This document shows, one piece after another, positions 8,600 through 38,799 of a DNA stretch of 64,000 bases; position 1 is the stretch's first letter, and every line of letters begins with the position of its first letter. Source of the stretch: Candidatus Magasanikiibacteriota bacterium. Lineage in GTDB: Bacteria; Patescibacteriota; Patescibacteriia; Magasanikbacterales; UBA922. Under the pieces are notes generated by a model, which was not told the origin of the DNA, ran no database searches, and saw only the letters and a program-made list of their open reading frames with translations. A program made the position numbers and the translations under genes. The DNA lies in the NCBI GenBank assembly GCA_041675185.1, contig JBAYUH010000001.1, positions 10,869-74,868 of the forward strand. Reading direction: 5' to 3'.

Positions 8600-9691
8600 T
8601 TACGAATTTAATATATTTTGATATACTTCCTCCGTTTTCTTCAACATACTTTCCAAACTAAACTTACCCTCAACCAACACCATCCCATTCTTACCCAATT
8701 TCAATCTCAATTCAGGATTGTTTATCAATTCTAGCAAAGCTTGGCTTATTTTACCAGCGTTGTTTTCCACTAATCTCCCGACTGTATTATCCACTATTTC
8801 TCCCACTCCACCAACATTACTAGCTATCACAGGCAAACCAACTGACAAAGCCTCAAGAATAGTATAAGGAAATCCTTCCCAAGCAGAGATAAAAACAAAA
8901 ATATCATTTTTAGATAGTTCTTTCATTACTTCACCATGTTCTAAATTACCAGTAAAAAAAACATTTACTTTTTTTTCTTTAGCTAATTGTTCTAAATATT
9001 TTCTTTTTGGTCCGTCACCAACAATTGTAAATTGTATTTTATCTTGAATTTCTTTTTCAAAATTACTAATAACTTCAATAATCATCTCCGGCCTCTTCGG
9101 CTCAGCCAAACGCCCAACAAAAATTAAATTAACTTTTGAGCTAACTGTCGACTGTCGACTATCGACTGTCGACGTGATACCGTTGTATATAACAGTCATT
9201 TTTTCTTCACCAGCTAATTTATACTTTAATGCCAAATCCTTCACAAATTCAGAAACACAAATATATTTGTCTGTATATCCAGCATTTATTTTTTCAGTTA
9301 ACAAAACCAAAAATCTAACAAGAGGATTCATACCAATATTAAAACCCCAGCCATGGGCAGTATAGATTGTTTTGTATTTTCCTCTGATTGCCAAACGCGT
9401 TAGGAAAGCTGCGGAAGAACTATGGCAATGGACAATGTCTGGCTTAAATTTTTCTACAAAATTTTTTATTTCTTTTATAGCTTTTACAATCCTAACAGGA
9501 TTAGAGCTATTGGAAAAATATTTGTTTTCAAAATATTTTATATTATTTTTTTTACATTCATCTTTTAACCAACCATCACCACCAGCCATAACAACTACTT
9601 CGTTTTGTTTAGCAAAATAATTACAAAGATCTGACACATGAGTTTGTGCTCCGCCGGCTTCTGATTTAGTTATTAGATAAAGGATTTTCAT
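8600..9691 (-). CDS. Glycosyltransferase family 4 (GT-B, retaining)
   Basis: C-terminal EGFPYTILEALSVGLPVIAS (EX7E-type) motif. 363 aa. Confidence 0.8.
   Translation of the reverse strand: MKILYLITKSEAGGAQTHVSDLCNYFAKQNEVVVMAGGDGWLKDECKKNNIKYFENKYFSNSSNPVRIVKAIKEIKNFVEKFKPDIVHCHSSSAAFLTRLAIRGKYKTIYTAHGWGFNIGMNPLVRFLVLLTEKINAGYTDKYICVSEFVKDLALKYKLAGEEKMTVIYNGITSTVDSRQSTVSSKVNLIFVGRLAEPKRPEMIIEVISNFEKEIQDKIQFTIVGDGPKRKYLEQLAKEKKVNVFFTGNLEHGEVMKELSKNDIFVFISAWEGFPYTILEALSVGLPVIASNVGGVGEIVDNTVGRLVENNAGKISQALLELINNPELRLKLGKNGMVLVEGKFSLESMLKKTEEVYQNILNS
9145..9172. repeat. Tandem heptanucleotide repeat (CTGTCGA)x4 inside the GT4 coding sequence
   Basis: The sequence ctgtcga ctgtcga ctatcga ctgtcga is read directly from the window. 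It is locally GC-rich and encodes the linker STVDSRQSTVSS between the two GT-B domains. Confidence 0.7.
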
Positions 9692-10500
9692 AAATTTTTA
9701 TTCTTTATTTTGTTTATAATTTTTAATCCGCCAAGAAAAACAACAAAATATTTCAAAAACCATTTTGAACGTCCTAAAAAATAATTTGGATAAAAAAATT
9801 TATGTTTCTTTATCAATTGTAAATTGGCTTTTATTTGTCGCAAATTATTTTTCTGTGTTTCACCTTTTTCATTTAGCAAATAACCAACACTATATTCTGA
9901 TATATTGGCTAGTTTATACTTTTCACCCATACGTAACCACAAACCATAATCTTCAGCATACTTTTCTCCCATATCATAATTACCACACTCCAGACTAGCA
10001 TCTTTTCTAAACAAAACACTGGAATGAACAAAACAACTTTTTATTAACATTTTAGTTTTTATTTCTGAAAAATTTGTCGGATGTACTATGTTGAAAAGAT
10101 TTTCATTTCCAATATTATAAACTTTGGCCCAAGTACCTACCAAAGCGTAATTCAAATTATTATCCAAAAAATCCACTTGCTTTTGCAACTTATCTTTGTC
10201 TAGCCACCAATCATCACTATCTATTCTAGCAATATACTCACCTTTGGCAATTTCAATACCTTTGTTTAAGTTAAATATTAAACCTTGGTTTTCTTCATTT
10301 TTTATATAAATAATTCTTTTATCATCAAAAAATTTTATTTTTTCTTCTGTATTATCACTACTATTATCGTTTATAATAATAAATTCAAAATCAACAAAAG
10401 ACTGAAACAAAACACTTTCAACAGCTTTTGTTATAAATTCAGCATTATTGTAAGTTGACATGATTATGGATACTTTTGGCATATTTATAATCTTATCCAA
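9688..10500 (-). CDS. Glycosyltransferase family 2
   Basis: VSIIMSTYNNAEFI...IIINDNSSDNT...RIDSDDWW (DxD/DSDD) motifs. Confidence 0.8.
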   Translation of the reverse strand: MDKIINMPKVSIIMSTYNNAEFITKAVESVLFQSFVDFEFIIINDNSSDNTEEKIKFFDDKRIIYIKNEENQGLIFNLNKGIEIAKGEYIARIDSDDWWLDKDKLQKQVDFLDNNLNYALVGTWAKVYNIGNENLFNIVHPTNFSEIKTKMLIKSCFVHSSVLFRKDASLECGNYDMGEKYAEDYGLWLRMGEKYKLANISEYSVGYLLNEKGETQKNNLRQIKANLQLIKKHKFFYPNYFLGRSKWFLKYFVVFLGGLKIINKIKNKNL

Positions 10501-11276
10501 TCTTTTGGAACTATATCACTCTTATTATTAACCTGATTGTTATTAAACCACTTTTTAGGAGCTATGACAATCTTATCTTTATTTTCATTGAGCCAAGCTC
10601 CCCACCAACTAAAACTACTATTAGCAATAATGTTGTGTTGACATTTACTCATAAGAATCAATTCTTCATAATCTTTTATGTCTTCACTAGAAACAAAAAA
10701 CAAATTATCTAATTTCAAATTTTCTTTTACCCAAGATATGTCATCAGAAAATACAAATATTTTTATCTCTCCAATTTTTTCTTTCAAATATTTTATAGCT
10801 CTTTCATAATAATTCAAATCACAAACACCGTGATAATCATTTGTTTTAATATCAGAAACATAGTCGCCACGACGAATGTGTAGGGAAACAGAATTTCTAT
10901 TATGCAAAATTTCTTGTTCAAATTTGCTAGCACTTTCACTCATTTCATTTTTTAGAGTAAATTCTTTTCTAACAACATCTTCAATATTTCTAAAATATTT
11001 TTCACTTTGAAAATATTCTTCAACATTAAACCCTAATATCCTTTTTATTTTATTTACAAAATCAAAAAAAACATTTTTCTTATTTACAAATTTAACTTTT
11101 TTATCTATATTAAAATTGCACAATTTAAAATCTCTAGCAACATCATGTTTGGCTTTGTTGTTTTCAAAAAATGAAATATCAAAAACAACTTTCTTACCAG
11201 AAAATTCCAGACTCCTACCGTGAGCATATTGGAACATTTGATTACCGAGACCACCTTTTAGTTTCAAAACTATCAT
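10485..11276 (-). CDS. Alpha-1,2-fucosyltransferase, glycosyltransferase family 11 (FutC/WbnK-like)
   Basis: MIVLKLKGGLGNQMFQYA N-terminal motif, HIRRGDY, and C-terminal CQHNIIANSSFSWWGAWL. These are the three hallmark GT11 motifs shared with H. pylori FutC. Confidence 0.85.
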   Translation of the reverse strand: MIVLKLKGGLGNQMFQYAHGRSLEFSGKKVVFDISFFENNKAKHDVARDFKLCNFNIDKKVKFVNKKNVFFDFVNKIKRILGFNVEEYFQSEKYFRNIEDVVRKEFTLKNEMSESASKFEQEILHNRNSVSLHIRRGDYVSDIKTNDYHGVCDLNYYERAIKYLKEKIGEIKIFVFSDDISWVKENLKLDNLFFVSSEDIKDYEELILMSKCQHNIIANSSFSWWGAWLNENKDKIVIAPKKWFNNNQVNNKSDIVPKDWIRL

Positions 11277-11280
11277 AAAA

Positions 11281-12321
11281 TTAAGAAATTATTTTCTTTC
11301 TACCACCCAAAAATATAATGTCCAAAATAGACACTTTTCTCAAAAAAAATCTTGATATAACGATTGAACAAAATAATGATGTCACAACTGAAAACAATAT
11401 CAAAAACATATTACTTCCCAAACGTAACAAAAAATAAAAATGCAAAACATAAATATCCAAAGAGTATGAGCTCAACCATTTCAAAAAATTAAATATAATA
11501 TTTTTCTTCAATATATTGATAATAAAATATGAAAAACCAATACCTGAAAATGCAGTTAAAATAATAAAAGCAAAAGCCAACAATTGAGGAATATAAAATG
11601 ATTGATTAAAATTAACAAAACCAAAAATTTTTTCTAAAAAGAAATAATGATTCGTACGATGCCACAGAGAAACTAAAATGGGGAATAAAACAAGAGAAAC
11701 AAGGCTTAAGTGAAATAAATATTTTTTAAAAAAATTAGCAAATACTCTTGACAGATAGCCAATAAAAAAATATATACTATGCCATTTCAACAAACCAATT
11801 CCTAAAAATCTATACGGTGACAATTCTATTAATAGAATTAATAAAAAATAAGAAACTATACCTATTTTTTTCTCTAATTTTATAGCAACCAAAAGACAGC
11901 AAAAATTTAAAAATAATACCCACAAAAACCACAATCCAAAATCTGGAGAAAAAAATAATTTCATCCAATATGCCCAAAATCCTGTAAAATGATAGGCACC
12001 TTTTATAAAATAATCTAAAAAATACCACGCTAAAAATGGTACAACTAAACAAAGAAATTTTTTTCTAACAAAAGTAAACGATGGCAATTTTAAGATATTG
12101 AAAGCTACAAAACCACTCAAAAACATAAACAACGGCATGTGAAAAGAATAAATTATACGAAAAAATATATTATTATCAAAATCCAATAAATTAATCTGTA
12201 ATGCGTGACCAACTACTACCAAAATTATTGCAAAACCTTTTAGAGCATCAACAAGAGCAATCCTTGAGTTATTTACCTGCCCTTCAACAGAAGTATTATT
12301 TTGAAAACCAAATAAAGACAT
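11281..12321 (-). CDS. Acyltransferase-3 family integral membrane protein (putative polysaccharide O-acetyltransferase)
   Basis: 346-aa polytopic membrane protein. It has an N-terminal VVVGHALQI region typical of the OafA/WecH acyltransferase_3 family. Confidence 0.5.
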   Translation of the reverse strand: MSLFGFQNNTSVEGQVNNSRIALVDALKGFAIILVVVGHALQINLLDFDNNIFFRIIYSFHMPLFMFLSGFVAFNILKLPSFTFVRKKFLCLVVPFLAWYFLDYFIKGAYHFTGFWAYWMKLFFSPDFGLWFLWVLFLNFCCLLVAIKLEKKIGIVSYFLLILLIELSPYRFLGIGLLKWHSIYFFIGYLSRVFANFFKKYLFHLSLVSLVLFPILVSLWHRTNHYFFLEKIFGFVNFNQSFYIPQLLAFAFIILTAFSGIGFSYFIINILKKNIIFNFLKWLSSYSLDIYVLHFYFLLRLGSNMFLILFSVVTSLFCSIVISRFFLRKVSILDIIFLGGRKKIIS

Positions 12322-12334
12322 AAACTTCTATTAG

Positions 12335-13117
12335 TTAATATTTAAATTTTTTAATTATTTTTTTTAGATTACTAACAATTAATCGCATCTCTAATTTATT
12401 TCTCAATTTAAAATGACCACCTAATTTTGTTTTATCTTTTATTAAAATTTTCCGTTCAAATGGTATGTCAAAATCTTCAGGATACAAATAAGCTGGTGTA
12501 AGTATTTTGACAATATGTAAATTATTATTCAAATAACAATTCCAATGAGATTCATCGTGCCAAACAGCAGTGATATTATTACTAAAATCTTTTTTGATAT
12601 TATTACTCATTACTTCCATAGATTCTATAAAATCTTTTGATCGTCCACCATTTATACCTCCAGCAAAATAATATGCACCTTGCCCCTTAGGAATGAAAGC
12701 TGATGATCTTGAATTTCTCTCGTAAGTAAAGCTATCCACTTTTTTATCATAATAACCAGGATGTAGGCAGGCAACTAATTTTTCTTGGCCAACTGGTACA
12801 AATTCATCAGCAATAATCTTTTCCAAAAATTGTAAATTAGCATTAAAAAAGAATAGAAAATCAAAACTTTTTAAAGTCTCTTTTAATTTCAAAAACATTT
12901 CATATCTTCTCAATGTATTCCCTGGCCACCCTAAATTTTCTTGAGGTACTCTGTGTATTCTTGAATTTTCACTCTCAAATTCGATACTTTCACTATCCGT
13001 AAAAACAAAATAGTGTTTTTCAGCATCAGAAATAAAATATTTTTCACAACTCAAATAAAAATCTTTCCAAAAAAGATTGTATTTACCTGTGCAAATATAT
13101 AATATACCTATCTTCAT
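12335..13117 (-). CDS. Glycosyltransferase family 6 (ABO blood-group A/B transferase / alpha-1,3-Gal(NAc) transferase homologue, bacterial NxN type)
   Basis: The sequence aligns by eye to the human GTA/GTB catalytic core: LHPGYY..FTYERN.RSSAFIPKGQGAYYFAGG..GG...AVWHDESHWNCYL...KILTPAYLYPE. The FFFNANL motif replaces the eukaryotic DVD motif, as in Bacteroides/E. coli O86 GT6 enzymes. Confidence 0.85.
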   Translation of the reverse strand: MKIGILYICTGKYNLFWKDFYLSCEKYFISDAEKHYFVFTDSESIEFESENSRIHRVPQENLGWPGNTLRRYEMFLKLKETLKSFDFLFFFNANLQFLEKIIADEFVPVGQEKLVACLHPGYYDKKVDSFTYERNSRSSAFIPKGQGAYYFAGGINGGRSKDFIESMEVMSNNIKKDFSNNITAVWHDESHWNCYLNNNLHIVKILTPAYLYPEDFDIPFERKILIKDKTKLGGHFKLRNKLEMRLIVSNLKKIIKKFKY

Positions 13118-13144
13118 ATGAGTTACATTTTAACAAATTCTACC

Positions 13145-13957
13145 TTATTTGGGAAACCAACTCTTAATTACTTTCCTAATATTGATTATTGGTTTTAATA
13201 AAATAAAACAAAAAACAAATTCCAAAAAATATTGTTTCTTATATTTCTTAAAAATTCCAGCTATTTCTAATTTACCTCTTTCCGATTGTAATCCAGAAAC
13301 GGTCGCACCATGAGCTCGATAAACAGACAGAAAATTTTTAACAAACAAAAACTTTTCTTTTTTTAACAACCTAAACCATAACTCATAATCCATTACCACT
13401 TTTAAATTTTCTAAAAACAATCCTCTTCGTTCAAAAACTTCTTTTTTAATAAAAGTGGAAGGATGAGGAATTCCATTTCTAAAAAATAAATAAGATTCTA
13501 TAAATTTACAAAATAACCAAAAAACAAATTTATTTTTAGGCCAAATTGAATGGAAACCATCATCTTTTTTATATAAACAGTTTCCAACTACAATCATTGC
13601 ACTGCTATTGCTAAATTTCTTATATACCAAAGACAAAACATGATCATCAAAAAAATAATCATCACTATGCAAATGAACAAGTATTTCTCCATTTGCATAC
13701 TTTATACCTGTATTCATTGCACGCGATATCCCTTCTGGTTTTTCCTGAATCAATCTGACAGATTCAGTATGACGCAATTGATATTTTTTTATAATTTCAA
13801 CAGTATGATCAGTGGAAAAAGCATCAATAAAAATATGTTCAAAATTTTTATAATCTTGATTCTCAACAGAATTTATACAATCCTGTAAATATTTTTCACT
13901 ATTGTAAGTGCAAGTGATGACTGTAAATTTAAATTTATTATTTTGATTATTAAACAT
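13145..13957 (-). CDS. Glycosyltransferase family 2
   Basis: FTVITCTYNSEKYL...HIFIDAFSTDHT...HSDDYF motifs. Confidence 0.75.
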   Translation of the reverse strand: MFNNQNNKFKFTVITCTYNSEKYLQDCINSVENQDYKNFEHIFIDAFSTDHTVEIIKKYQLRHTESVRLIQEKPEGISRAMNTGIKYANGEILVHLHSDDYFFDDHVLSLVYKKFSNSSAMIVVGNCLYKKDDGFHSIWPKNKFVFWLFCKFIESYLFFRNGIPHPSTFIKKEVFERRGLFLENLKVVMDYELWFRLLKKEKFLFVKNFLSVYRAHGATVSGLQSERGKLEIAGIFKKYKKQYFLEFVFCFILLKPIINIRKVIKSWFPK

Positions 13958-13959
13958 AT

Positions 13960-14760
13960 CTAAACTTTTTTGTTTGTCTCAGGAATTATATAAGATAACC
14001 AAAAATTTTTATCATGCTTAGCCCATGCGTGACAGCCAAAAGGAAGTTGATAATTATTCCTTTCAAAACAATATTTTGGTCCTGTCTCAAAAGCAAATTT
14101 CAAACCTGTGTCTACATCTGGAATTTTAAAATCAGGCACAAAATTTTTAGCCTCAAAAGACCAATAATAATCCTCTGCCAACAAACTGCGATGTGAGGTA
14201 GAACGGGACCAAATTTCTTTGAAACCCCTTAACCACGATTTCAAACTTCTAATTTTTACTAAAGAAACTAGTTGTTTTAAAAACTTAAAACTAGTAACCA
14301 ATAATGGTTCATTTGATTTTTCAATAACTTCAAGGGCTTTAGATACGTTACGTAAAGAAAAACCGCCATTACCACAGGCATCCTCATGACTGTAGGCTGG
14401 AATCTGTGATTTAAACCAAGGAGCACCAACATAATCATATCCTTTTTCACACCACTCATTTAATTGATCAGAAAAAACTAAAACATCAAATTGATAAATC
14501 AATATATATTCATACTCAGAAAATTTTTGATAAAATTCTTTTTTTAGCATTAATTTAGAATACGTCATTACACTTTTAAAATATTTTTTTGGAAAGAATA
14601 CAGTCGGAAATTTATGATAATTTAAATCTGTTAATCCATCTGGGGCCATATAAAAAATATCATAACTACCCAAAAAATGTAACAAATGACGCAAAGATAT
14701 TTTTTCGTCTTCATTCAAATCTTTTTTATAAGTTGGTACTACAATAGCAACTTTTTTCAT
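13960..14760 (-). CDS. Putative glycosyltransferase-like protein (DUF5672-like)
   Basis: MKKVAIVVPTYKK...EYILIYQFD...GYDYVGAPW. This N-terminal pattern occurs in uncharacterised proteins of polysaccharide loci. The family assignment is made from memory. Confidence 0.35.
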   Translation of the reverse strand: MKKVAIVVPTYKKDLNEDEKISLRHLLHFLGSYDIFYMAPDGLTDLNYHKFPTVFFPKKYFKSVMTYSKLMLKKEFYQKFSEYEYILIYQFDVLVFSDQLNEWCEKGYDYVGAPWFKSQIPAYSHEDACGNGGFSLRNVSKALEVIEKSNEPLLVTSFKFLKQLVSLVKIRSLKSWLRGFKEIWSRSTSHRSLLAEDYYWSFEAKNFVPDFKIPDVDTGLKFAFETGPKYCFERNNYQLPFGCHAWAKHDKNFWLSYIIPETNKKV

Positions 14761-16295
14761 ATTATATTTAATTTATTTATTAAATAATCTCTATATTCTT
14801 TACTAAAAATTTCTTCTTCTTTAATATTTTTTATTTTAAATAACAAATGATTATATATTTCTTCTACAGATGGTGCAACTGATTGATTAGACTTCAAATC
14901 ACTAAACAAAGGCATATCTATCTGACCATAATTATTATACACATACATATATATTTTTGCACGCTTTACAGTTTCTTCAGACAAACGATTAAATTCATTA
15001 TGCAATAATATATCTTCATATTCTTTTATACTTTTTGGTGTAATACAAAAATTACCCTCATCAAACATTGATCTGCCAGCTGTAATAACTGGTACACCAA
15101 TACAAGAATATTCACCAGCCACAGTACCGCGCATAGTTAACACTGCATCAATACTATCAACTAAATTAGCAGTAAGAGTATTGGAAGGAAACAGTCTAAT
15201 ATTATCAAAATGAGCAAAATCTTCGTACACAGTAATAGAACTACTTTTTGTTTTATATGAACTATCCGAAGGATGTGGTTTGATAACCCACAAAACATCT
15301 TTGCGTTTTGATGCTATTTTCAAAGTTTCTCTTAACCAAGTTTCGTAATCTGGAAATAATCCTTCACGATAACCATGCACTGCGTCTACGAATACATGAG
15401 AAAAAATAAAAACATGATATTTATATTTTTTATCAAAAAATTTATGATAATCATTTTCATCAAGTTTCTTAGCTTTACTATAGGCATTTTTTGCATTCCA
15501 ATCATAATCGTCAACAATTCCACCAAATAAATTAGTGATATATACGTCAGTCCACTTTAAAGCAACTTCAAAATTATCTTTTGAGATTTTTTGAAAATCA
15601 TCTTGATCTGGATGTGCAAGAAATAAATCAAGGTCACTAACTTTGGAATACTTTTTATAAGATACTTTGTTTGGACCAAACTTTCTATATAAAATCTTTA
15701 TATTGTGTTTCAAAGCTACTAATGAAGCTATCCCTGACCCAACATATATCTGTTCAGAACCTAAAAAAAATATATACTTTCTTTGAGAAAAAATTTTTTC
15801 AAATCTTGTATATAGTATCAATCCAAAACGTAAATATTTTGTAAAACGAATGTCCCACCATTTAACAGTACCTACTCCCGTAGAAGCTAAAAAAGTATCG
15901 TAAACAAAATGACCAATTATATTACCCTTATATTTAATATTCAACAATTTATTTTTAGTACGAGCAAATAACCAAGATATAACAGCTCTAAAAGATAACC
16001 ACAATTTAATTAAAAAAGAAACTTCAAAATCATCAATATAAACAAAATCAGTTATACCATAACTTTTTGCCAAAGATATTATTCCTAATTCATGTGATGA
16101 AGAAATCAAAGCAACTGGTTTGGCTTTCAAAATGTCAACCAAAGCTCTCATAGTAATCAAATGAACGTTGAGATACTCATGATCCACAACAGTCAAATCA
16201 ATTAAAAAAGAAGTATTATAATCAGGAATTTTAGACCAAAAATTATTGTTAATATCCAAAAAATCTTTTGGAGCAAAAAATGTTTTATTTATCAT
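14757..16295 (-). CDS. Putative capsule/teichoic-acid-type polymer biosynthesis protein (KpsS/TagF-like phosphotransferase or glycosyltransferase)
   Basis: 512 aa. C-terminal LWVIKPHPSD...TMRGTVAGEYSCIGVPVI resembles the HP-motif catalytic region of Capsule_synth/Glyphos_transf families. It overlaps the LicD gene by 4 bp. Confidence 0.3.
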   Translation of the reverse strand: MINKTFFAPKDFLDINNNFWSKIPDYNTSFLIDLTVVDHEYLNVHLITMRALVDILKAKPVALISSSHELGIISLAKSYGITDFVYIDDFEVSFLIKLWLSFRAVISWLFARTKNKLLNIKYKGNIIGHFVYDTFLASTGVGTVKWWDIRFTKYLRFGLILYTRFEKIFSQRKYIFFLGSEQIYVGSGIASLVALKHNIKILYRKFGPNKVSYKKYSKVSDLDLFLAHPDQDDFQKISKDNFEVALKWTDVYITNLFGGIVDDYDWNAKNAYSKAKKLDENDYHKFFDKKYKYHVFIFSHVFVDAVHGYREGLFPDYETWLRETLKIASKRKDVLWVIKPHPSDSSYKTKSSSITVYEDFAHFDNIRLFPSNTLTANLVDSIDAVLTMRGTVAGEYSCIGVPVITAGRSMFDEGNFCITPKSIKEYEDILLHNEFNRLSEETVKRAKIYMYVYNNYGQIDMPLFSDLKSNQSVAPSVEEIYNHLLFKIKNIKEEEIFSKEYRDYLINKLNII

Positions 16296-16999
16296 ATTTT
16301 TTTAATATACTTACAATACAAAGGATATAAATAATGAAAAGACCAAAAAACTGGATCAAATCTTTTATGAATAATATGGCAGTCTTCTTTCCAGTCACCT
16401 TTCGATTTGTTTGGTATCTTCCAAGTTGGACCATAAATACTACTTAAATAATTTTCTGGAGATGAAGGTAATGAAAAATTGTATCCAAAAAATTTAATAT
16501 AACTTTTCTCTTTCAGTAAATCAACGGGTAATTTCAAAACATAGCCCTGCTCACAATAAGTAACAACTTTATCATTCTTTTTAAACCAAAAAACCACATC
16601 TAAAGGAATATTATTTTGAGACAAAAAAACTAATTGTTGTATTTTTTTTCCATAAAAAACCTTCATTCTTAATTTCATACCAATCGATTCTAATACATTG
16701 ATTAACAAATCATAGTCAGTGTAACCAAATAAATCAATATCAAGATCATTGTCATGAGAAATAAGTCTATTTTCTCTACAAATACCCAAAGCTGTACCCC
16801 AACCTAAAGAATAAGGAATTTTATATTCATCCAACGCTTTACAACATTTTTTCAATGTATCCACGCCAAATTCTAACAAAGAACCATATTCATCAGACTC
16901 CAAAACACCCTCAACTTTATATAAATTAATTTTTTTATTATAAAAATTCCAAATTCTTTGTACCATCATTTTAAGAACACTCATAACTCTCATCTTCAT
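16292..16999 (-). CDS. LicD-family phosphotransferase (phosphocholine/phospho-alcohol transferase, fukutin-like)
   Basis: YSLGWGTALGICRENRLISHDNDLDIDLF matches the LicD core (GTLLGAxR...D.DID). Confidence 0.6.
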   Translation of the reverse strand: MKMRVMSVLKMMVQRIWNFYNKKINLYKVEGVLESDEYGSLLEFGVDTLKKCCKALDEYKIPYSLGWGTALGICRENRLISHDNDLDIDLFGYTDYDLLINVLESIGMKLRMKVFYGKKIQQLVFLSQNNIPLDVVFWFKKNDKVVTYCEQGYVLKLPVDLLKEKSYIKFFGYNFSLPSSPENYLSSIYGPTWKIPNKSKGDWKEDCHIIHKRFDPVFWSFHYLYPLYCKYIKKI

Positions 17000-17008
17000 A
17001 CTTTTTAG

Positions 17009-31044: not shown

Positions 31045-31083
31045 ACTTTCTTTAAAAATATATCAAAATTATTAGTTTAGATT

Positions 31084-31180
31084 CTCCCCCTAGTAGGGGG
31101 AGTCAGAGGGGGGTCTTTAGTAAAATAAAACGTTTTGTTTTATACTCCAGACCTCCCCTAACCCCTCCTAATAGGAGGGG
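31084..31180. promoter_or_regulatory. Pair of GC-rich perfect palindromes (CTCCCCCTA-G-TAGGGGGAG at 31084-31102; CCCCTCCTA-A-TAGGAGGGG at 31162-31180) between gmd stop and fcl start
   Basis: Both are exact 9-bp inverted repeats. They are strongly GC-rich in an AT-rich genome. G6 and C-rich runs are linked by AT-rich spacer. Confidence 0.5.
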
Positions 31181-31214
31181 GATCAAACAAAATCCATCTT
31201 CAAACTTGTTTATA

Positions 31215-31260
31215 CTCATACACTTTCGACTTTATGGACTTTACAGACTTTATGGACTAT
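31215..31260. repeat. AAAGTC-iteron element, copy 4 (right-arm-only version)
   Basis: ctcatacactttc gactttatg gactttaca gactttatg gactat. It is 44/46 identical to copy 6 at 32719-32763. Confidence 0.7.
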
Positions 31261-31261
31261 T

Positions 31262-32269
31262 TTATTCACACATAATCTTCACCAATTCCTTAAATTTCGT
31301 CTTCGGCTCCCAGCCCAACTTATCTTTGGCCTTCGTAGCATCACCCAACAACAAATCCACTTCAGCTGGACGAAAATATTTTTCATCAATTTCAATTAAA
31401 ACTTTACCAGTTTTTTTGTCTATTCCTTTTTCTTTTAATCCACTACCTTGCCATTTTATTTCAAAATCAAAATACTGTGAAGCTTCTTCCACAAATTCCC
31501 GTACACTATGTGTTTCACCAGTGGCTACTACATAATCATCTGGATCTTTTTGTTGAAGCATAAGCCACATAGCCTCGACATAATCTTTGGCATAACCCCA
31601 ATCACGTTTGGCTTCTAAGTTTCCCAAATATAATTTTTCTTGTTTTCCTTCTTTGATATTTTTGAAAGCATCAACAATTTTTTTAGTTACAAAAGTACCA
31701 CCACGTCTTGGAGATTCGTGATTGAACAATATCCCATTACAAACAAACATATTATAGCTATCACGATAATTGACAGCGATATTATGGGCATAGACCTTGG
31801 CACAAGCATAAGGACTGCGTGGATAAAAGCCAGTCGTCTCTTTTTGAGGAGTTTCCAACACTTTTCCAAACATTTCTGAGCTACCCGCCTGATAAAATTT
31901 TACTTTCATTCCCTTGTCACGAATAGCGTCAAGCAGACGCAATGTTCCAAGACCATCAGCATCAGCAGTATATTCAGGCAAATCAAAACTAACACGAACA
32001 TGACTCTGGGCACCAAGATTGTATATTTCATCAATCTGTACTTCATCCAAAATACGACTAATATTACTACTGTCAGTCAAATCTCCGTAATGCAAAAATA
32101 ATTTTACATCTTTACTATGTCGATCACGATAGAGATGGTCAATTCTTTCAGTATTGAAACTACTAGAACGACGGATAATCCCATGCACTTCATAACCTTT
32201 TTGCAATAATAATTCAGCCAGATAAGATCCGTCTTGGCCAGTTATTCCTGTAATTAATGCTTTTTTCAT
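31262..32269 (-). CDS. gmd: GDP-mannose 4,6-dehydratase
   Basis: [47 protein letters not shown] is the canonical Gmd N-terminus. Confidence 0.9.
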
Positions 32270-32271: not shown

Positions 32272-32378
32272 AATTAGTCCTTAAAGTCTATAAAGTCCAT
32301 AAAGTCAAAAGTCCTTAAAGTCTGTAAAAAAATATTCCTCAGACTTTCGACTTTAAAGACTTCATGAACTTTTGACTA
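32272..32378. repeat. AAAGTC-iteron palindromic element, copy 5
   Basis: ttagtcc ttaaagtc tataaagtc cataaagtc aaaagtc cttaaagtc tgtaaaaaa ... cagacttt cgacttt aaagacttc atgaacttt tgactat. It overlaps the stop codon of the 4HB gene. Confidence 0.7.
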
Positions 32379-32723
32379 TCTTAATGTTTTTATAAAACCT
32401 GAAATTAATTTAGAAATTTCAATTGATAAATCATAATACTTTCTAGAATCTTCTTGTGAGATGTAATGCAATTCAAAAGCAAGATAAATCATAGAACGTA
32501 CTTCCCCACATGATCCTTTTGCTATAAATAAAAATCTAGAAAATTCTACATCACTCTTTCTTTCAAATCCTTCTGCAATATTGTTCATTACGGACACACT
32601 TGCTCGTTGAATTTGATCTCTAAATCCATAGTCCTTGCATAATCCAAAAGATTTATAAATATTTATGGACAACAGTTTAGCTTTTTGCCAAGCAATTATA
32701 TCCTCAAATTTATCTATACTCAT
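32376..32723 (-). CDS. Four-helix-bundle protein ('23S rRNA intervening-sequence protein' family)
   Basis: 115 aa. AWQKAKLL...QIQRASVSVMNNIAEGFER...FLFIAKGSCGEV is the signature of the TIGR02436 family. Confidence 0.7.
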   Translation of the reverse strand: MSIDKFEDIIAWQKAKLLSINIYKSFGLCKDYGFRDQIQRASVSVMNNIAEGFERKSDVEFSRFLFIAKGSCGEVRSMIYLAFELHYISQEDSRKYYDLSIEISKLISGFIKTLR

Positions 32724-32767: not shown

Positions 32768-34774
32768 TTAAAATTGAATACCCTTTTCCAACGCAGCACT
32801 ATGCAAATCCAAAGCCTTTTGTACCTCTCCCATCCCCTTATACATATTTTCCAACTGTTGCCAGCCATTGGCAATCTTAAAATCATTGTCAATACTGTCC
32901 TGCAAGAGCTTGGTAGCTTCATCATACTTATGCAAATTTTCTTTTACACCTGCAAGCATATACTGTATTTGTTGTCTTTTTGGTGACAAAATCAAAGCGT
33001 CTTCCAATATTTTTTCTGTTTCTATCAAAAATGACGTGTCTTGTTTGGCTACTGCCCCATAAATTTTTATTTGAGCCAATTGTATACTAACTCTTATATC
33101 ATCTGGATGCAACTCCAAATTTTGATTCAAATTTCTCACAGCTTCATCATAAAAAGGTTGGATTTCTGACCATTTGTTCGAAGTTTTTTGATCTTTCAAA
33201 ATCTGAGAAATAATCTCACCAAAAATACGCGCTGTATCATTTCTAATATCATCAATATGTGGTGAAGGGATAGCAAACGCACGATTGTAGTCTTCTATAT
33301 AATTCCTACCAAAATTCAAATCTCTAATAGTCAACAGAGTTGCTTTGTTTGCTCTTGCTGAATTGACATCAGTACTATAAATAAAAAGTAAAATCAATAA
33401 AGAAACAAATACTGTCCAAGGCATAGAAACATCTCTATTACTTTTAGTAATATTTTCTGATTTTGTTTTTTCTGCAAAGACAGATGCAAAAGCCAAAAAA
33501 AAGAAAAAATAAAGATAAGAAGTAGGATTGTCAAAAACAGTTGCTACACTTATAAAGTGCGTCCAAAGAAAAGCTACTCCAAACGCCAAAACATGAACAT
33601 CTATTTTTCCTTCTTTGTATCTCTTAGAGAGACAAATAGTAGCCAAAACAAAAATACTAATATACAAAAGCAATCCAACAATCCCTTGCACTGCCAAAGT
33701 ATTCATAATTACACTATGAGCATTGTCAAACCAAGTTTCAGTAAAACCATATTCCAAAAATTCAGCCCGATAATATTTGTTGAAAGCATAATAATAATTG
33801 TTTGGGCCCCAACCAAAAATAGGTTTTTCTGTCCAAGCATCGAGTGCTACACCCCAGGCCATTACTCTAGTATTGGTTTTGGAAATGTCTGTATTCAAAA
33901 GACGACCAACAGCTGGCAAACTACTGACAAAATTAGTATTTCTATTTATAAACAAAACACCCATGGCAGAAACACCAAGTAAGACAACTATCAAAACAAT
34001 TTGTTTCAATTTCTTCTGCTCTTTCAAAGTGAAGAAGTAGACAGCTAATAAAACAAAAAGTCCCAAAATAAAAGCTACTAAAGCTCCACGAGTACCCCCC
34101 AAAAATATACCCCAAATACCAAGCAGAGCAACTACAATTTCAAACCAAAACCAACTAGCATCCATTGACAAAAATTTAATACTTCTTATTTTCAAATTTT
34201 CTTTAATAGCCAAAAACGTTCCCAAAAAAAACAAGAACATCCCATATCCACTAAAATAAATAGAATTGCCAAGCGTAGAAGACACACGATCACTACCTCT
34301 GTTCAAAAGTAAATTTGGATTAACATGTTTTTGTAATACACCAATAAACATCACTATACTTCCAGCCAAAAGAAAAGTACGCATGAGCCATTTCCAATCT
34401 GACCAATCACGTACCACAGTTGTAATGATAAAATAATAAACAATATAATGAAAAATTGTAAAAGTACCAAGCATTCTTTCGTGATTATCCCAAAAACTCT
34501 TGTACCAATCTACTCCCACAAAAGTAGAAACAACAAAAGAAGCAAAAAATAATAATACAGCAATATTGATCCAAGAAAATCTAGGTCTGTATTTCTTGAA
34601 ATCACTAACTAACAAAATAAGATAAAGCCCAAGCATCACCAAAACTAGAGATCTAAAATAGATAATTTTTGGCACTATGAAAGGAAAGACATAAGTTGTA
34701 GGAAATATCAGAAGTGGTACAAAAAAAGTGATTCCAATTATTATTTTTAGAATTTTTTCTAAAGTTTTTTGCAT
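32768..34774 (-). CDS. Wzy_C (O-antigen ligase / O-oligosaccharyltransferase) domain polytopic membrane protein with C-terminal TPR repeats
   Basis: 668 aa with about 12 TM helices and a large periplasmic-type loop. The C-terminal ~180 aa carry TPR-like helices (YDEATKLLQDSI, ALDLHSAALEKG). The architecture resembles WaaL/PglL/WsaB-type ligases. Confidence 0.6.
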   Translation of the reverse strand: MQKTLEKILKIIIGITFFVPLLIFPTTYVFPFIVPKIIYFRSLVLVMLGLYLILLVSDFKKYRPRFSWINIAVLLFFASFVVSTFVGVDWYKSFWDNHERMLGTFTIFHYIVYYFIITTVVRDWSDWKWLMRTFLLAGSIVMFIGVLQKHVNPNLLLNRGSDRVSSTLGNSIYFSGYGMFLFFLGTFLAIKENLKIRSIKFLSMDASWFWFEIVVALLGIWGIFLGGTRGALVAFILGLFVLLAVYFFTLKEQKKLKQIVLIVVLLGVSAMGVLFINRNTNFVSSLPAVGRLLNTDISKTNTRVMAWGVALDAWTEKPIFGWGPNNYYYAFNKYYRAEFLEYGFTETWFDNAHSVIMNTLAVQGIVGLLLYISIFVLATICLSKRYKEGKIDVHVLAFGVAFLWTHFISVATVFDNPTSYLYFFFFLAFASVFAEKTKSENITKSNRDVSMPWTVFVSLLILLFIYSTDVNSARANKATLLTIRDLNFGRNYIEDYNRAFAIPSPHIDDIRNDTARIFGEIISQILKDQKTSNKWSEIQPFYDEAVRNLNQNLELHPDDIRVSIQLAQIKIYGAVAKQDTSFLIETEKILEDALILSPKRQQIQYMLAGVKENLHKYDEATKLLQDSIDNDFKIANGWQQLENMYKGMGEVQKALDLHSAALEKGIQF

Positions 34775-34873
34775 AATTTTATTGTTTATAAAGTTTACAA
34801 AGTTAATGCAACCAGCAAACCTATTTTATATAGTACAGACATTATATCTATAAACTTAATTTTTTTCAAGTAA

Positions 34874-34910
34874 AACAAAAACCACCCCGACAAGGGGTGG
34901 TAATTTGTTT
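34874..34910 (-). terminator. Rho-independent terminator downstream of the S-layer-like gene
   Basis: CCACCCC-gacaa-GGGGTGG hairpin flanked by an A-run (34874-34881) and a T-run. On the minus strand the hairpin is followed by UUUUUGUUUU. Confidence 0.65.
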
Positions 34911-34944: not shown

Positions 34945-37900
34945 TTAACTTGATTTAGATACAGAGAAGTGACTAGTTGGTAGACTCAAATAAAAACCGT
35001 TTACCCATTCAGTTGAACCAACTCCATCAGAGTCAGCAGACTGATCAGACCAAACAAAGTCATTGTTAGCATCACCATAAGCGTTAGCAAATGTTTCTGT
35101 GAATGCACTCAAATTGCCAGCATCACGAACAAAGTAAGTATCGATTGAATCACCAGCTTCAACACCAGCGATATCAGCGCGAACTTCGAAAGTACGTGTA
35201 GTACCAGCAGCAATTGTAACAACTTTAGTAGTATCAAAGTTGATCAAGAATTGACCATCTGTACTAGAAGTAGTTGAGGTAACATAACCATCGGTATTCA
35301 ATTGTGTTTCAGAACCTGTAACATCAAAAGCGTACAATGTACCAGAAGTAATTCTCAACCAAGCATCTGTACCATCAGAATCATTGAAGTCAATATATGG
35401 AGCGATACTACCCAAAACTACATCACCATTAGCTGGAGCAGTAACAGTAAACTTCATGATTGTTTTACCAGTGTTAGAACCAGTACTCAATGAAGTACTT
35501 GGAAGAGTTGCAACTGCAACAGTTGGTTTTGACAATCGAACTGACATTGTATTACCAACAGCAGCATCAGCAGCTGTATCAGTAAATCCAGAAGTAGCTA
35601 CAGCCTTGAAATAATCAGCTGTAGTATCTAATCTGAATTCTACAAAATCTCCAGAATCAGCGCCTGTACCAGCAGTACCAACGGTATTGGTTGTACGTTC
35701 GCCAATTGCACTGAATTTTGCTTTGACAACAACTACAGTTTCACCAGTATTAGCTACTGAGAAATTCAAAGAATCAAAGACAGCTTGGCCACTAGAATTT
35801 AGACCAACACCACCGTCAGGACCCAATTGAGTTCCTGTACTACTATACAATTGGACATATTCTACATCATCATAAGCATCTGTAGAAGATACCAAAATAG
35901 TCATTTTTTGTACATTGAAAGCTTCTTTAGTAGCAGTCAAAGTGATACGATGCATTTCTTGTTCAGTTGACAAACCAGCAAGTACAATACCTGCATCTGG
36001 TTTACCACTATTAGCAGCTGTAGTAATAGTACCATTAGCAGCTACAGTGATAGCAACAGAAGGAGCTGTAGTACCATTTAAGTTAGTACCAGTTACAGTA
36101 GCATCAAAAGAGCCATTAGCATCTTCTGCAGTAATGTCAGCAGTAGCAAGAGTAAATGCAAATGCATCATTCTCTGAACCATAAGGAGCATTACCAGAGA
36201 TAACAGCTTTGGCAACAATTGTCTTACTTGTTCCAGCAGGGATAGTATAATAACCACCCACAAATTTACTAGAACTAAATATTGCTTTACCATTTGAATC
36301 AACAGTAGCAGGACCAGCAACTAATGTGTCACCAACATACAAACTTACTTGAGTGACTACAGCATTAGCTGGAGTTGCAACAGTTTCTGTTTCAGTATTC
36401 AAAGTATAATAAACATCAGCTGTTGTACTTGCGTTGATATATGTGTTCAATGTCAAAGCAGACACTTTTACATCATTACCAGCACCAGAACCAGCAGTGA
36501 AAATCATACCAAGAGCATCAACAGTAGATCCTTTTACAACTGTTCTTGATTCAGGAGAAGCTGCACGAGATACAGTCAAAGATGAACTACGAGTAGTAAC
36601 ATTGTAACCAGCTACATTAGTAGCAGGAACAACATCAGTTATTGTATTATCTTTTGAATCTTTTGCAGTAAATACAGTACTACCAAATTCTAGAGTAGCT
36701 TTGTAAACTACACCAGAAACTTGAGCAGTATTGATATCAGCTACTACAGCAACATTTTTAGTTGCACCTTTAGCTACTGTAAAATAATCAGTATATGTAA
36801 AGGTTAATGTAGCGTTGGTATTATTACCATCAGCCCAAGAATCAGCATCTGTAATTGCTTTTGCAGAACCGATAGTTTGACCAGAATCTGCATCAATCAA
36901 TTTGATATTACGGATAAGTAAAGTATCGGTAGTAGAATCATATTGATCACCAGTACCTAAATCCTTATACAAACCATAAGATACAGCACTATTAGTTGTA
37001 CTTGTAGTTTCCAATTGTAAAGTCATTTTTTGTACTTCAGTACTATCAGAAACAGCTTTCACAGCAACTCTCATAAGTTCTACACTTGTAGAATCAACTT
37101 TTACATCATGAGCAGATGCACTATGATTAGAGATAGTTACTCCACCACCTTGTAGTGTAAGAGTTGAACTATTACCAGCATCATCATATGAAGTAATAGT
37201 AGCCAAAGCACCATAACCATATGATGTACCAACAGCTTTTACATCAGCTGCGTTGTTCATGAAGAATACGATTGTATCTGCAACATCTGCACTAGCACTA
37301 ATATCACCTACCAAACTAAAAGTTTTACTTGCACCGTTTACCAATTTTAGAGGTGTATTTAAAGCTAAAGTAAGATAGCGACCATTCAAAGTAGCTGTTG
37401 TAGGAACAACATCAACACCTTGATATAATTTGAAATTACTCAAATTACTTGTAGTAAGAGTACCATCTTGTTTCAAAGTGATAGCTGAAAACATTTCATC
37501 TTCAGTAGCAGCTGTCAATTTGAATTGAGCCATTGTTACATTAGTATCACCAACTGTAGGATTTGACAAAGTGCCAGTACCTACAACTGTCAATGTACCA
37601 GCAGTTACTGCACTACTTACTGTAAAAGTATTACCAGTTACAGGAAGACCAGTTACTGTTGTACCTAGACTAGAATTGATAGCTGTGATAGAAAAGTTAT
37701 GTTCTCCAGCTGTAGTACCTGTTTGTAATCTAACAGTCAATACTTTTGTAGAATTAGCAGGAACTACCAAACCAAGAGAAGTAAATTCTGCTGTGTTAGT
37801 ATCTGAAGAAAAAGTTCTACCAGATGAACCAAGTCTTACTTCACCATCATATAGATAAGATGTAAGACCAGTTGTCAAACCAGCGCCAGATCTTTTTACT

Positions 37901-38799
37901 GTAACTTCATTAACAGTAACAGCTGAACTACCAGCTACTAAGTTTACTTTCAATACATCTACATTTGTAGCACTCTTTGGAAGAGTAGCACTTGTAGGTG
38001 TACTAGCGTTTAAACTAACAGCCAAATTACCACTAGCTGTAGGAGGAGTTGTTGTTGTACCTTGACCAAGGTTAACTAACAAATCTAATACAGTAGCTTT
38101 TGTAACAGTACTACCACTGTCTTCTACAGTTGCGAATACTGAGTCAGAAACAGTTTGTACACTACCAGCAGAAGCACCAAGAGTGCCATCTACCATGTAT
38201 AGTTTACCATCTTTTACGAAGTAAACTGAGTCAGAACTAGCTTTTTTTACAAGCATACCTGCATGAGGTACAGCACTTACAAGAGCTGTGCCAACAGTTG
38301 GGTAGACAGTTGTCCACCAAGCACTGTTTACATCTCTAACTTTTGTTGTCCAATTTGAACCATAAAGAGCAGATGCTACTTCTTCACTAGGAAGGGCAAC
38401 TTTTGTTCCGTTTGGTGTTACTGCGTATACAGTATTATTTACTTCTTCTTTTACAAGCATAGAACCAGGTCTAAAACTTACTCCATAAGGAGCTGAAGAA
38501 GTTTGTGGGTAAGCATTGAAACAAGTTTGTGTCAATTTGTTTACACCACTGAAATCACTATACCAAGTGTGATATACTTCTGAATTTGGGAAGTATAATC
38601 TTTCCAAATTTGAGTTCAAAAGGAAAACAGCAGAATTGCCGGTCAATTGAACTAGATCTCCAGCACTAAGTGTTGGACATTCACCTTCAGCGTGTGCGAC
38701 TACAGGAACTAGAGCTGAAACGCCTAGACTCCATGCTAATGTCATTGCCACGACTGAAAAGGTGAACAATTTTTTTCCGAATTTTAATACGTCATTCAT
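34945..38799 (-). CDS. Putative S-layer / major cell-surface (glyco)protein
   Basis: 1284 aa. Signal peptide FTFSVVAMTLAWSLGVSALVPVVAHA. The composition is dominated by Thr/Ser/Ala/Val/Gly/Asn with essentially no Cys after the N-terminus. GC content and codon choice (act/gct/gtt/ggt/tct) are distinct from neighbours, consistent with a highly expressed gene. It has its own promoter, a strong SD (AAAAAGGU) and its own terminator. Confidence 0.5.
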   Translation of the reverse strand: MNDVLKFGKKLFTFSVVAMTLAWSLGVSALVPVVAHAEGECPTLSAGDLVQLTGNSAVFLLNSNLERLYFPNSEVYHTWYSDFSGVNKLTQTCFNAYPQTSSAPYGVSFRPGSMLVKEEVNNTVYAVTPNGTKVALPSEEVASALYGSNWTTKVRDVNSAWWTTVYPTVGTALVSAVPHAGMLVKKASSDSVYFVKDGKLYMVDGTLGASAGSVQTVSDSVFATVEDSGSTVTKATVLDLLVNLGQGTTTTPPTASGNLAVSLNASTPTSATLPKSATNVDVLKVNLVAGSSAVTVNEVTVKRSGAGLTTGLTSYLYDGEVRLGSSGRTFSSDTNTAEFTSLGLVVPANSTKVLTVRLQTGTTAGEHNFSITAINSSLGTTVTGLPVTGNTFTVSSAVTAGTLTVVGTGTLSNPTVGDTNVTMAQFKLTAATEDEMFSAITLKQDGTLTTSNLSNFKLYQGVDVVPTTATLNGRYLTLALNTPLKLVNGASKTFSLVGDISASADVADTIVFFMNNAADVKAVGTSYGYGALATITSYDDAGNSSTLTLQGGGVTISNHSASAHDVKVDSTSVELMRVAVKAVSDSTEVQKMTLQLETTSTTNSAVSYGLYKDLGTGDQYDSTTDTLLIRNIKLIDADSGQTIGSAKAITDADSWADGNNTNATLTFTYTDYFTVAKGATKNVAVVADINTAQVSGVVYKATLEFGSTVFTAKDSKDNTITDVVPATNVAGYNVTTRSSSLTVSRAASPESRTVVKGSTVDALGMIFTAGSGAGNDVKVSALTLNTYINASTTADVYYTLNTETETVATPANAVVTQVSLYVGDTLVAGPATVDSNGKAIFSSSKFVGGYYTIPAGTSKTIVAKAVISGNAPYGSENDAFAFTLATADITAEDANGSFDATVTGTNLNGTTAPSVAITVAANGTITTAANSGKPDAGIVLAGLSTEQEMHRITLTATKEAFNVQKMTILVSSTDAYDDVEYVQLYSSTGTQLGPDGGVGLNSSGQAVFDSLNFSVANTGETVVVVKAKFSAIGERTTNTVGTAGTGADSGDFVEFRLDTTADYFKAVATSGFTDTAADAAVGNTMSVRLSKPTVAVATLPSTSLSTGSNTGKTIMKFTVTAPANGDVVLGSIAPYIDFNDSDGTDAWLRITSGTLYAFDVTGSETQLNTDGYVTSTTSSTDGQFLINFDTTKVVTIAAGTTRTFEVRADIAGVEAGDSIDTYFVRDAGNLSAFTETFANAYGDANNDFVWSDQSADSDGVGSTEWVNGFYLSLPTSHFSVSKSS

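Follow-up and report, generated by a model that had tools for sequence, protein, structure and literature searches.

A stretch of 64,000 nucleotides from a Candidatus Magasanikbacteria genome (hereafter the window) encodes a large secreted surface protein, here named SLP, beside a membrane enzyme that joins a Wzy_C ligase domain to tetratricopeptide repeats (Wzy_C-TPR). The enzyme is of the WaaL type with intact catalytic residues, the surface protein is secreted and carries an interchangeable anchor, the linkage of the two genes is conserved across related genomes, and the adjoining genes supply the enzyme families of glycan synthesis together with an ABC-transporter export route. The best reading of this arrangement, offered tentatively and rated a little short of an even chance, is surface-layer (S-layer) type O-glycosylation of the neighbouring SLP by Wzy_C-TPR. 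SLP would then be the acceptor of the glycan and would itself form an S-layer.

The organism belongs to the Parcubacteria group of the Patescibacteria, or Candidate Phyla Radiation (CPR), a very large and almost uncultured share of bacterial diversity. Because these bacteria live on or near other cells, the envelope is central to their biology, and its components are largely without assigned identity. A literature search found no paper linking an O-antigen-ligase-family enzyme to a surface protein in CPR/Patescibacteria, and no description in Patescibacteria of the module of sigma factor, SLP and Wzy_C-TPR presented here. If the reading is true, S-layer-type O-glycosylation, described mainly in Firmicutes, Bacteroidota and archaea, would extend to the CPR. 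The analysis yields a candidate major surface protein, a candidate dedicated glycosylation enzyme and a conserved RNA leader that could serve as a marker. Pseudaminic acid on an S-layer O-glycan is not itself new, since that of Tannerella forsythia is already known to bear it in terminal position.

A conserved surface-protein and ligase module

The module comprises the following features of the window.

40619..41224, minus strand: sigma-70 factor of the extracytoplasmic function (ECF) type, first gene of the conserved module (Pfam Sigma70_r2 and Sigma70_r4_2)
39242..40567, minus strand: 441-aa single-pass membrane protein, putative anti-sigma partner (by position; one transmembrane helix, residues 78-96)
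38859..39075, minus strand: structured 5' leader RNA of the SLP gene (P0 hairpin with the invariant box UGCCAUACAGUA, then a multi-hairpin domain)
34945..38799, minus strand: SLP, 1284-aa secreted wall-anchored surface protein, candidate S-layer protein and candidate glycan acceptor
34881..34901, minus strand: intrinsic terminator after the SLP gene (8-pair stem with 6 G-C pairs, then a T-run)
34841..34869, minus strand: near-consensus sigma-70 promoter of the Wzy_C-TPR gene (TTGAAA-17-TATAAT, 11 of 12 consensus positions)
32768..34774, minus strand: Wzy_C-TPR membrane enzyme, 668 aa, predicted undecaprenyl-pyrophosphate (Und-PP)-glycan:acceptor ligase or O-oligosaccharyltransferase (O-OTase) (Pfam, AlphaFold2, Foldseek)

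Conservation was followed in 80 loci found by scanning GTDB species genomes with a Wzy_C-TPR profile, most of them labelled Magasanikbacteria. Of these, 63 have 5 kb or more of sequence upstream and are informative; their open reading frames (ORFs) were searched with hidden Markov models. In 51 of the 63 an SLP-family gene stands upstream of Wzy_C-TPR and shares its strand, and in 39 of the 51 it lies no more than 1 kb from the first Wzy_C-family ORF. The comparison that a first-pass annotation of the window had proposed, namely whether the S-layer-like gene and the Wzy_C-TPR gene co-occur in related genomes, is thus positive. Upstream, an ECF sigma homolog occupies the same relative position in 42 of the 80 loci (tblastn), and the 441-aa membrane protein is kept in 42 as well. 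Downstream, gmd matches are present in 46 and fcl matches in 54 of the 80 (tblastn counts that include low-identity paralogs of the short-chain dehydrogenase/reductase family), and high-identity copies (gmd 75-93%, fcl 60-84%) directly follow Wzy_C-TPR in many loci.

The genes further downstream behave differently. Matches to wzm/wzt fall within 10 kb in only 5-10 of the 80 loci, and the genes for pseudaminic acid (Pse) are common to the window and a single other locus (L070). The conserved unit is therefore the sigma factor, the membrane protein, SLP and Wzy_C-TPR, usually with gmd/fcl, and the remainder is a variable glycan cassette. The fully co-linear cluster of about 27 kb is peculiar to this genome, so that its earlier description as far richer than known S-layer glycosylation (slg) loci was overstated. 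Across the homologs in the 80 related genomes the window's Wzy_C-TPR is 41-77% identical while the downstream sugar genes change, which fits a glycan-promiscuous ligase and not a polymerase. The pairing also recurs in a distant relative (L082), where the gene for an SLP of the PG_binding_1 type comes before that for a full-length homolog of Wzy_C (hhalign E 6e-48), with a bacillosamine-like cluster and Bac_transf beside it, and another SLP-anchored locus is ordered SLP, TPR, Wzy_C, Wzy_C.

In 13 loci (L003, L021, L022, L028, L029, L040, L044, L048, L054, L060, L067, L073, L074) a second, longer Wzy_C paralog of about 720-790 aa separates the SLP gene from the main Wzy_C-TPR gene. L085 and L086 have a second paralog too, and some relatives add a separate TPR protein of 227-230 aa. 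Many public records of metagenome-assembled genomes that contain the module (L010, L013, L015 and others) are titled 'uncultured Gammaproteobacteria bacterium', probably a labelling artefact.

The Wzy_C-TPR enzyme

Wzy_C-TPR scores 69 bits against Pfam Wzy_C (cut-off 31.7) and ends in C-terminal TPRs. Its AlphaFold2 model (pLDDT 83) contains 13 transmembrane helices; residues 277-354 form a helical loop, and a TPR solenoid begins near residue 490. The top solved structure retrieved by Foldseek is WaaL of Cupriavidus metallidurans (7TPG; E 8.8e-6, TM 0.59), to whose residues R191, R265 and H313 the enzyme's R229, R303 and H353 align. Across 23 family members R303 and H353 are invariant and R229 is at least 90% conserved. 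The enzyme thus combines a Pfam gathering score, a WaaL-like fold, two pyrophosphate-binding arginines and a catalytic histidine, the marks of the Wzy_C/WaaL superfamily. WaaL itself differs in having 12 helices, no TPR and lipid A-core as acceptor. A closer layout is seen in the O-OTase PglS of Acinetobacter, which has 13 transmembrane helices, a periplasmic C-terminal domain and an Arg/His site superimposable on that of WaaL (PMC12800693). The shared fold, the intact Arg/Arg/His site and the agreement with PglS in helix layout and site make it well supported that Wzy_C-TPR takes a glycan from its Und-PP carrier and passes it to an acceptor on the outer side of the membrane.

The orientation of the enzyme is a prediction. 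Loop charges read from the translation obey the positive-inside rule for an N-in orientation, which together with the 13 modelled helices would place both the catalytic loop and the TPR domain outside the cell, as in PglS. The family always carries this TPR domain, predicted to be external and rich in invariant residues.

Two other identities were considered and rejected. A Wzy O-unit polymerase is contradicted by the score against TIGR04370 (22.9, cut-off 40) and by the retention of Wzy_C-TPR across loci with differing sugar genes; in addition, a Pfam scan of the cluster proteins finds no flippase family, as a Wzx-partnered polymerase would have. WaaL proper, the lipid A-core ligase, is likewise set aside, as Patescibacteria are regarded as lacking lipopolysaccharide.

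The surface protein

SLP has a predicted signal peptide, and the mature protein of 129 kDa has an isoelectric point of 4.47 (family median 4.63). It contains 15% Thr and 10.5% Ser (25% Ser+Thr) and only two Cys, the acidic, Cys-poor composition rich in Ser, Thr, Ala and Val that is expected of bacterial S-layer proteins. Sequence searches of Pfam, NCBIfam and PDB return no useful relative, and a look-up by the exact SLP sequence yields no record. Residues 38-240 are predicted with high confidence (pLDDT 94.9) to form three beta-beta-beta-alpha-beta-alpha repeats, and this triple repeat resembles the cell-wall-binding domains of phage endolysins, while a profile of the module has no Pfam or PDB sequence relative. 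The body that follows consists of about six homologous beta-rich repeats of 150-180 aa each.

The N-terminal module behaves as an interchangeable wall anchor, judging from its distribution. Homologs that align with SLP from about residue 255 to the C-terminus bear 3xSLH or PG_binding_1 in its place, and in other Patescibacteria the module itself is joined to surface domains of the CARDB or Big_1 kind. Secretion and a wall anchor exchangeable with SLH or other domains, both expected of an S-layer protein, are thus found in the SLP family. Anchor swapping of this kind has been described for Firmicute S-layers (bioRxiv 10.1101/2025.04.02.646754). The SLH- and CWB2-anchored S-layer proteins of Firmicutes resemble SLP in their signal peptide, tripartite N-terminal wall anchor, acidic Cys-poor body, anchors exchanged between homologs and alleles that diverge much more than the neighbouring genes do. 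They differ in that the anchor of SLP has no sequence match in Pfam or PDB and its lattice is only a candidate. SLP is probably the cell's main surface-layer protein.

Length within the family is narrow (median 1256, interquartile range 1226-1296) though identity is only about 30%. Conservation is relatively high in the anchor module and lowest in the distal repeats, and Thr, Ser and Pro abound in the linker that joins anchor and body. In L002, SLP is 31% identical to that of the window while its neighbours reach 81% (sigma), 69% (Wzy_C) and 93% (gmd). Conversely, the window's best SLP matches among the 80 loci (49-54%) come from genomes in which Wzy_C is only 42-44% identical. SLP alleles are out of step with the flanking genes in L002, L004, L038, L064 and L072. 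This discordance points to the pattern of exchanged surface-antigen cassettes.

The structured leader and upstream regulators

The 442-bp spacer upstream of the SLP gene has no good listed sigma-70 match and holds instead a conserved structured leader. The first-pass annotation had given the SLP gene its own promoter and terminator; the terminator is present at 34901-34881, and the promoter is not borne out. The leader is a GC-rich island in an AT-rich spacer and folds far better than shuffled sequence (z = -4.35). None of 4227 Rfam covariance models matches it at gathering scores, and nothing relevant appears at E <= 5; by these comparisons it is a new structured element without an Rfam family. 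A covariance model built for it gives 12 matches, every one just upstream of an SLP homolog. In the resulting alignment 88.5% of cells pair, as against 37-46% in slid controls, and compensatory changes occur in 26 of 44 pairs; this covariation comes from 12 sequences fitted to the model, a fit that favours pairing, and is accompanied by independent single-sequence folds. In those folds the P0 hairpin forms in 12 of 12 loci, and its upper stem differs in each locus yet stays paired. The conserved base of P0 reads UACUGURUGGC ... GCCAUACAGUA. Of 50 loci, 35 have the box UGCCAUACAGUA at 150-260 nt before SLP; elsewhere in 1.95 Mb it occurs 12 times.

In the first RNA model, helix 1 is probably either a mistake or an alternative pairing: compensatory pairs are absent from it, and the better-supported P0 uses its 5' strand as a 3' arm. 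In L002 and L004 the leader is 79-84% identical to that of the window, where the SLP proteins are only 31-37% identical, so that the RNA is conserved more than the coding sequence after it. The leader would serve as an mRNA-stabilising or regulatory element. Leader and terminator are consistent with high expression of SLP, and no more than that. A possible 9-codon upstream ORF, ATGATAAGCCAAAAAGGTATTTATGAATGA (38799-38828, minus strand), is preceded by GGAGG, and its stop overlaps the SLP start codon, either as translational coupling or by chance.

Upstream of the leader lie the ECF sigma factor and the 441-aa membrane protein. The latter has no Pfam match itself; its positional homologs in L084, L085 and L086 carry PF18915 (DUF5667). 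The pair persists directly upstream of SLP in L084, where Wzy_C is absent. Their position suggests envelope-stress control of the surface protein.

The glycan gene cluster

Downstream of Wzy_C-TPR the window contains the following genes.

32376..32723, minus strand: 23S_rRNA_IVP four-helix-bundle protein (Pfam PF05635)
30088..32269, minus strand: gmd and fcl, GDP-L-fucose synthesis (Pfam GDP_Man_Dehyd, 517 bits; Epimerase)
29722..29964, minus strand: HTH_17 protein, 80 aa (Pfam HTH_17)
27440..29622, minus strand: Wzm (ABC-2 permease) and Wzt (ATPase) (Pfam ABC2_membrane; ABC_tran and Wzt_C, E 2e-10)
23460..27432, minus strand: pseB, pseC, pseF and pseI, CMP-pseudaminic acid synthesis (NCBIfam equivalogs)
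19611..23439, minus strand: DUF218, formyltransferase-like, WbuX, HisH and WbuZ/HisF-like proteins (Pfam/NCBIfam)
16292..19529, minus strand: phospho-amino-alcohol module of an NTP-transferase/CobD-like decarboxylase fusion, an S-adenosylmethionine-dependent methyltransferase and LicD
8600..16295, minus strand: assembly block of a 512-aa protein, DUF5672, glycosyltransferase families GT2 and GT6, Acyl_transf_3, GT11, GT2 and GT4 (Pfam)
5897..8485, minus strand: ugd-like UDP-sugar dehydrogenase (7073-8485) and galE-like epimerase (5897-6907) (Pfam)

Nearly all the gene identities given in the first-pass annotation are confirmed by Pfam or NCBIfam, including the four-helix-bundle protein, the pse module, an amidotransferase trio (WbuZ/HisF-like, HisH and WbuX) and, at family level, the phospho-alcohol module. 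The ORF listing also agrees with its statement that all 28 genes across 8600-38799 lie on the minus strand, a co-directional run that really spans 1368-41224 without a break. The ugd and galE genes, which had been counted within 8600-38799, lie outside these coordinates though in the same run. Overlapping or less than 50-bp junctions, claimed for the whole interval, are found at 8600-29622 except at a single gap of 81 bp; higher up the spacings are 99, 123, 217, 106 and 170 bp, the last preceding the 1284-aa gene in coordinate order, with 442 bp beyond it.

The four pse genes all score above their equivalog cut-offs (PseB 502, PseC 468, PseF 303 and PseI 456 bits). No family matching PseG (the UDP-sugar hydrolase) or PseH (the N-acetyltransferase) is found among the cluster proteins with Pfam/NCBIfam, and the formyltransferase-like and DUF218 proteins sit where PseG and PseH are expected. 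WbuX reaches 331 bits (cut-off 203) and WbuZ 294, just short of its cut-off of 299.7; by these family matches the block at 19611-23439 is likely to perform N-acyl or acetamidino tailoring of an amino sugar or nonulosonic acid. The phospho-amino-alcohol module combines NTP_transferase with Aminotran_1_2, Methyltransf_11 and LicD in Pfam; its CobD match (182 bits) is below cut-off, and LicD has a cholinephosphotransferase-like NCBIfam match. A phospho-amino-alcohol is the presumed head group. The C-terminal extension of Wzt is a Wzt_C carbohydrate-binding domain, and the nearest NCBIfam models of the protein are TagH and Wzt, both below their cut-offs. In the assembly block GT6 scores 301.7 bits against NF041524 (cut-off 250), and the 512-aa protein has no significant family. 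The GT11/GT6 pair suggests a blood-group-like epitope of the Fuc-alpha1,2-Gal type. Such a pair is known from Escherichia coli O86, whose O-antigen is blood-group-B-like.

Two small genes accompany the cluster. The 23S_rRNA_IVP gene between Wzy_C-TPR and gmd is present in only 5 of the 80 loci, where its place varies and may be to either side of Wzy_C, and for this reason looks like a mobile accessory gene, probably an insertion outside the pathway. The HTH_17 protein is 60-89% identical in 16 loci and borders the conserved gmd/fcl genes and the variable glycan genes.

Proposed pathway and comparison with known systems

The proposed pathway begins with substrates whose enzymes are identified at family level. 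Cytoplasmic enzymes would make GDP-fucose (gmd, fcl), CMP-pseudaminic acid (pseBCFI), probably amidino- or formyl-tailored, an activated phospho-amino-alcohol and UDP-sugars. The gene for the enzyme that starts the chain would lie elsewhere, and the soluble GT2, GT4, GT6, GT11 and DUF5672 proteins would build the chain on Und-PP at the inner face of the membrane. Wzm/Wzt, an exporter by family, would export the finished chain, with the C-terminal domain of Wzt probably reading its terminal cap. The external WaaL-type Arg/Arg/His site of Wzy_C-TPR would then shift the glycan from Und-PP to an acceptor; this chemistry is well supported, and the acceptor would most likely be Ser/Thr (or Tyr) of the 129-kDa SLP, recruited by the external TPR domain. 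SLP itself would leave through Sec, and the triple wall-binding module at its N-terminus would fasten it to the wall. Its gene, preceded by the conserved structured leader and closed by a terminator of its own, lies behind the conserved ECF sigma/membrane-protein pair.

A broader and somewhat less likely proposal joins these elements. The 1284-aa family would be the S-layer protein of a CPR lineage, borne in a clade-wide cassette (ECF sigma factor, membrane partner, leader RNA, S-layer gene and a dedicated TPR-bearing O-OTase) that plugs into exchangeable glycan clusters. Both protein allele and glycan would be swapped between lineages, varying the surface that meets hosts and phages.

The closest known systems are the slg loci of Geobacillus and Paenibacillus, a parallel already drawn in the first-pass annotation and partly supported. 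As in Geobacillus, assembly on a lipid carrier depends on an ABC-2 exporter (Wzm, and Wzt with Wzt_C, thought to read the terminal cap) and is accompanied by nucleotide-sugar genes, glycosyltransferases, a Wzy_C enzyme with a TPR partner (at domain level) and a large, monocistronic surface-protein gene close by. The part that fails is the start of the chain: an initiating phosphoglycosyltransferase of the WsaP/WbaP type is not found in the window locus. The two systems also differ in the glycan (rhamnan there; Pse, fucose and a phospho-amino-alcohol here), in the anchor module, which is new, in the CPR host, and in the fusion of TPR to enzyme; the likeness to WsaB follows published descriptions. 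Geobacillus WsaB lacks a TPR, but the TPR gene wsaA adjoins wsaB (PMC2943079), an order matched by the separate TPR gene before Wzy_C in some relatives of the window. According to published work (PMC2943079), WsfB, the S-layer O-OTase of Paenibacillus alvei, and PglL, known from Neisseria, both end in a TPR motif and so share at domain level the Wzy_C-plus-TPR layout of the window enzyme. S-layer genes near slg clusters are monocistronic and transcribed on their own (PMC2943079); the SLP terminator and the separate promoter of Wzy_C-TPR fit this separate transcription, with conserved synteny beside them and SLP as the candidate S-layer protein. In P. alvei the S-layer gene is not adjacent to the slg cluster, whereas adjacency is the rule here.

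The glycan has partial parallels further afield. T. forsythia shares a nonulosonic acid on an S-layer glycan and E. coli O86 the GT11/GT6 pair making a fucosylated histo-blood-group-like epitope; both are diderm hosts with other export and ligation machinery.

Alternative explanations

Several points weigh against O-glycosylation of SLP. A Wzy_C sequence alone cannot tell the acceptor, and the family profile lies nearer to WaaL (E 1.7e-7) than to PDB 9rmk_A, deposited as 'Oligosaccharyltransferase' (E 2e-3). Unlike PglL and PglS, the enzyme has no Pfam match to PglL_A or Wzy_C_2, the domains of proteobacterial O-OTases, at E <= 1e-3. Twelve of the 63 informative loci have Wzy_C-TPR with no SLP gene upstream, and no Wzy_C neighbours the patescibacterial SLP locus L084 or the SLH-type loci L081 and L083. 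The expectation that SLH-anchored SLP homologs adjoin Wzy_C thus failed in both loci examined. Adjacency of SLP and Wzy_C may reflect only a shared envelope regulon, SLP, whose lattice is hypothetical, could instead be an adhesin, and a glycoprotein in this lineage is predicted from genes alone. The window ORFs scanned include no Bac_transf or Glycos_transf_4 initiating phosphoglycosyltransferase, and LicD and TagH-like similarity are also typical of teichoic acids.

The main rival, although unlikely, is a TacL-like glycolipid ligase. Wzy_C-TPR would ligate an Und-PP-linked polymer to a membrane glycolipid, giving a lipoglycan similar to lipoteichoic acid, and SLP would be a co-regulated envelope gene and not the acceptor; LCP enzymes may attach the same chain to peptidoglycan. 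Such a transfer is performed by TacL of Streptococcus pneumoniae, a Wzy_C protein of 397 aa that moves Und-PP-linked teichoic acid to a glycolipid (PMC5727136). TacL, too, is a Wzy_C ligase of a single-membrane bacterium acting on an Und-PP-linked polymer decorated via LicD, and the Arg/Arg/His site is common to all Wzy_C ligases. The cluster contributes LicD with the phospho-amino-alcohol module and a Wzt that counts TagH among its closest, below-cut-off NCBIfam models, and an LCP gene lies at 42134-43579. The architecture argues otherwise: TacL-type ligases have about 400 aa and no described TPR, and TacL is not linked to a surface-protein gene, whereas the window enzyme has 668 aa, its family always carries the invariant-rich external TPR, and its gene order with SLP is conserved. 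Nor is a glycolipid-anchor synthase evident in the cluster. LCP does not lie within 10 kb of the module in any of the 80 loci and was rejected as its conserved partner; the LCP ligase that had been proposed as an alternative route of anchoring to peptidoglycan is thus not syntenic with the module.

Somewhat less probable again is general O-glycosylation, in which Wzy_C-TPR would be a broad PglL-like O-OTase acting on many secreted proteins, with SLP as its most abundant target or as none. PglL-type enzymes are promiscuous and have the same fold and active site, several other proteins bear the N-terminal anchor module of SLP, and some of the 12 loci without an adjacent SLP have another large secreted protein upstream. 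Against this breadth, the tight linkage to a single protein family, and the TPR/Wzy_C paralogs that follow it directly in tandem, suggest a dedicated pair, as O-glycosylation of SLP would have it.

Improbable, finally, is a scheme in which the cluster makes a secondary cell-wall polymer that is attached to peptidoglycan by LCP and bound by the N-terminal module of SLP, with Wzy_C-TPR as its polymerase or ligase: the module does resemble glycopolymer- or wall-binding domains, SLP homologs use SLH domains, which bind secondary wall polymers, and a TagH-like Wzt and LicD are present, yet the anchor is fairly well conserved and would call for a ligand conserved likewise, while the sugar genes vary between genomes, a polymerase would track its repeat unit while Wzy_C-TPR is kept across different clusters, the ABC-transporter route needs no Wzy polymerase (nor does TIGR04370 reach its cut-off), and LCP is not syntenic.

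Genomic setting of the window

A reduced, AT-rich, possibly episymbiotic genome had been guessed from the letters alone, and the guess proved correct given the Magasanikbacteria lineage and the 1.23-Mb complete chromosome of a related genome. SLP and Wzy_C-TPR each match, at 100% identity, an NCBI protein from a metagenome-assembled genome of Candidatus Magasanikbacteria. The GC content of the window is lowest in the glycosyltransferase/LicD block, at 0.25-0.30 as against 0.32-0.38 in the flanks. Low GC in such a block is common for exchangeable glycan clusters, and that of the segment at 9688-17722 suggests acquisition from elsewhere. GC skew levels off near 42 kb, where gene orientation flips (region 42000-56300), and parA/parB are at 54.5-56.2 kb; a replication landmark may be close to the window.

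Two further loci encode envelope-related proteins. At 61214-63402 (minus strand) a GT2 gene is followed by one for a 476-aa polytopic membrane protein with about 10-12 hydrophobic segments and no Pfam match; the two may be a second extracytoplasmic glycosylation pair, dependent on an undecaprenyl-phosphate-linked sugar. At 1368-5165 (minus strand), in the same co-directional run as SLP, lies the gene for a second large secreted protein of 1265 aa with Peptidase_C39_2, Lamin-tail and Ig-like domains, partial relatives of which stand upstream of Wzy_C-TPR in L041, L042, L051, L065 and L069.

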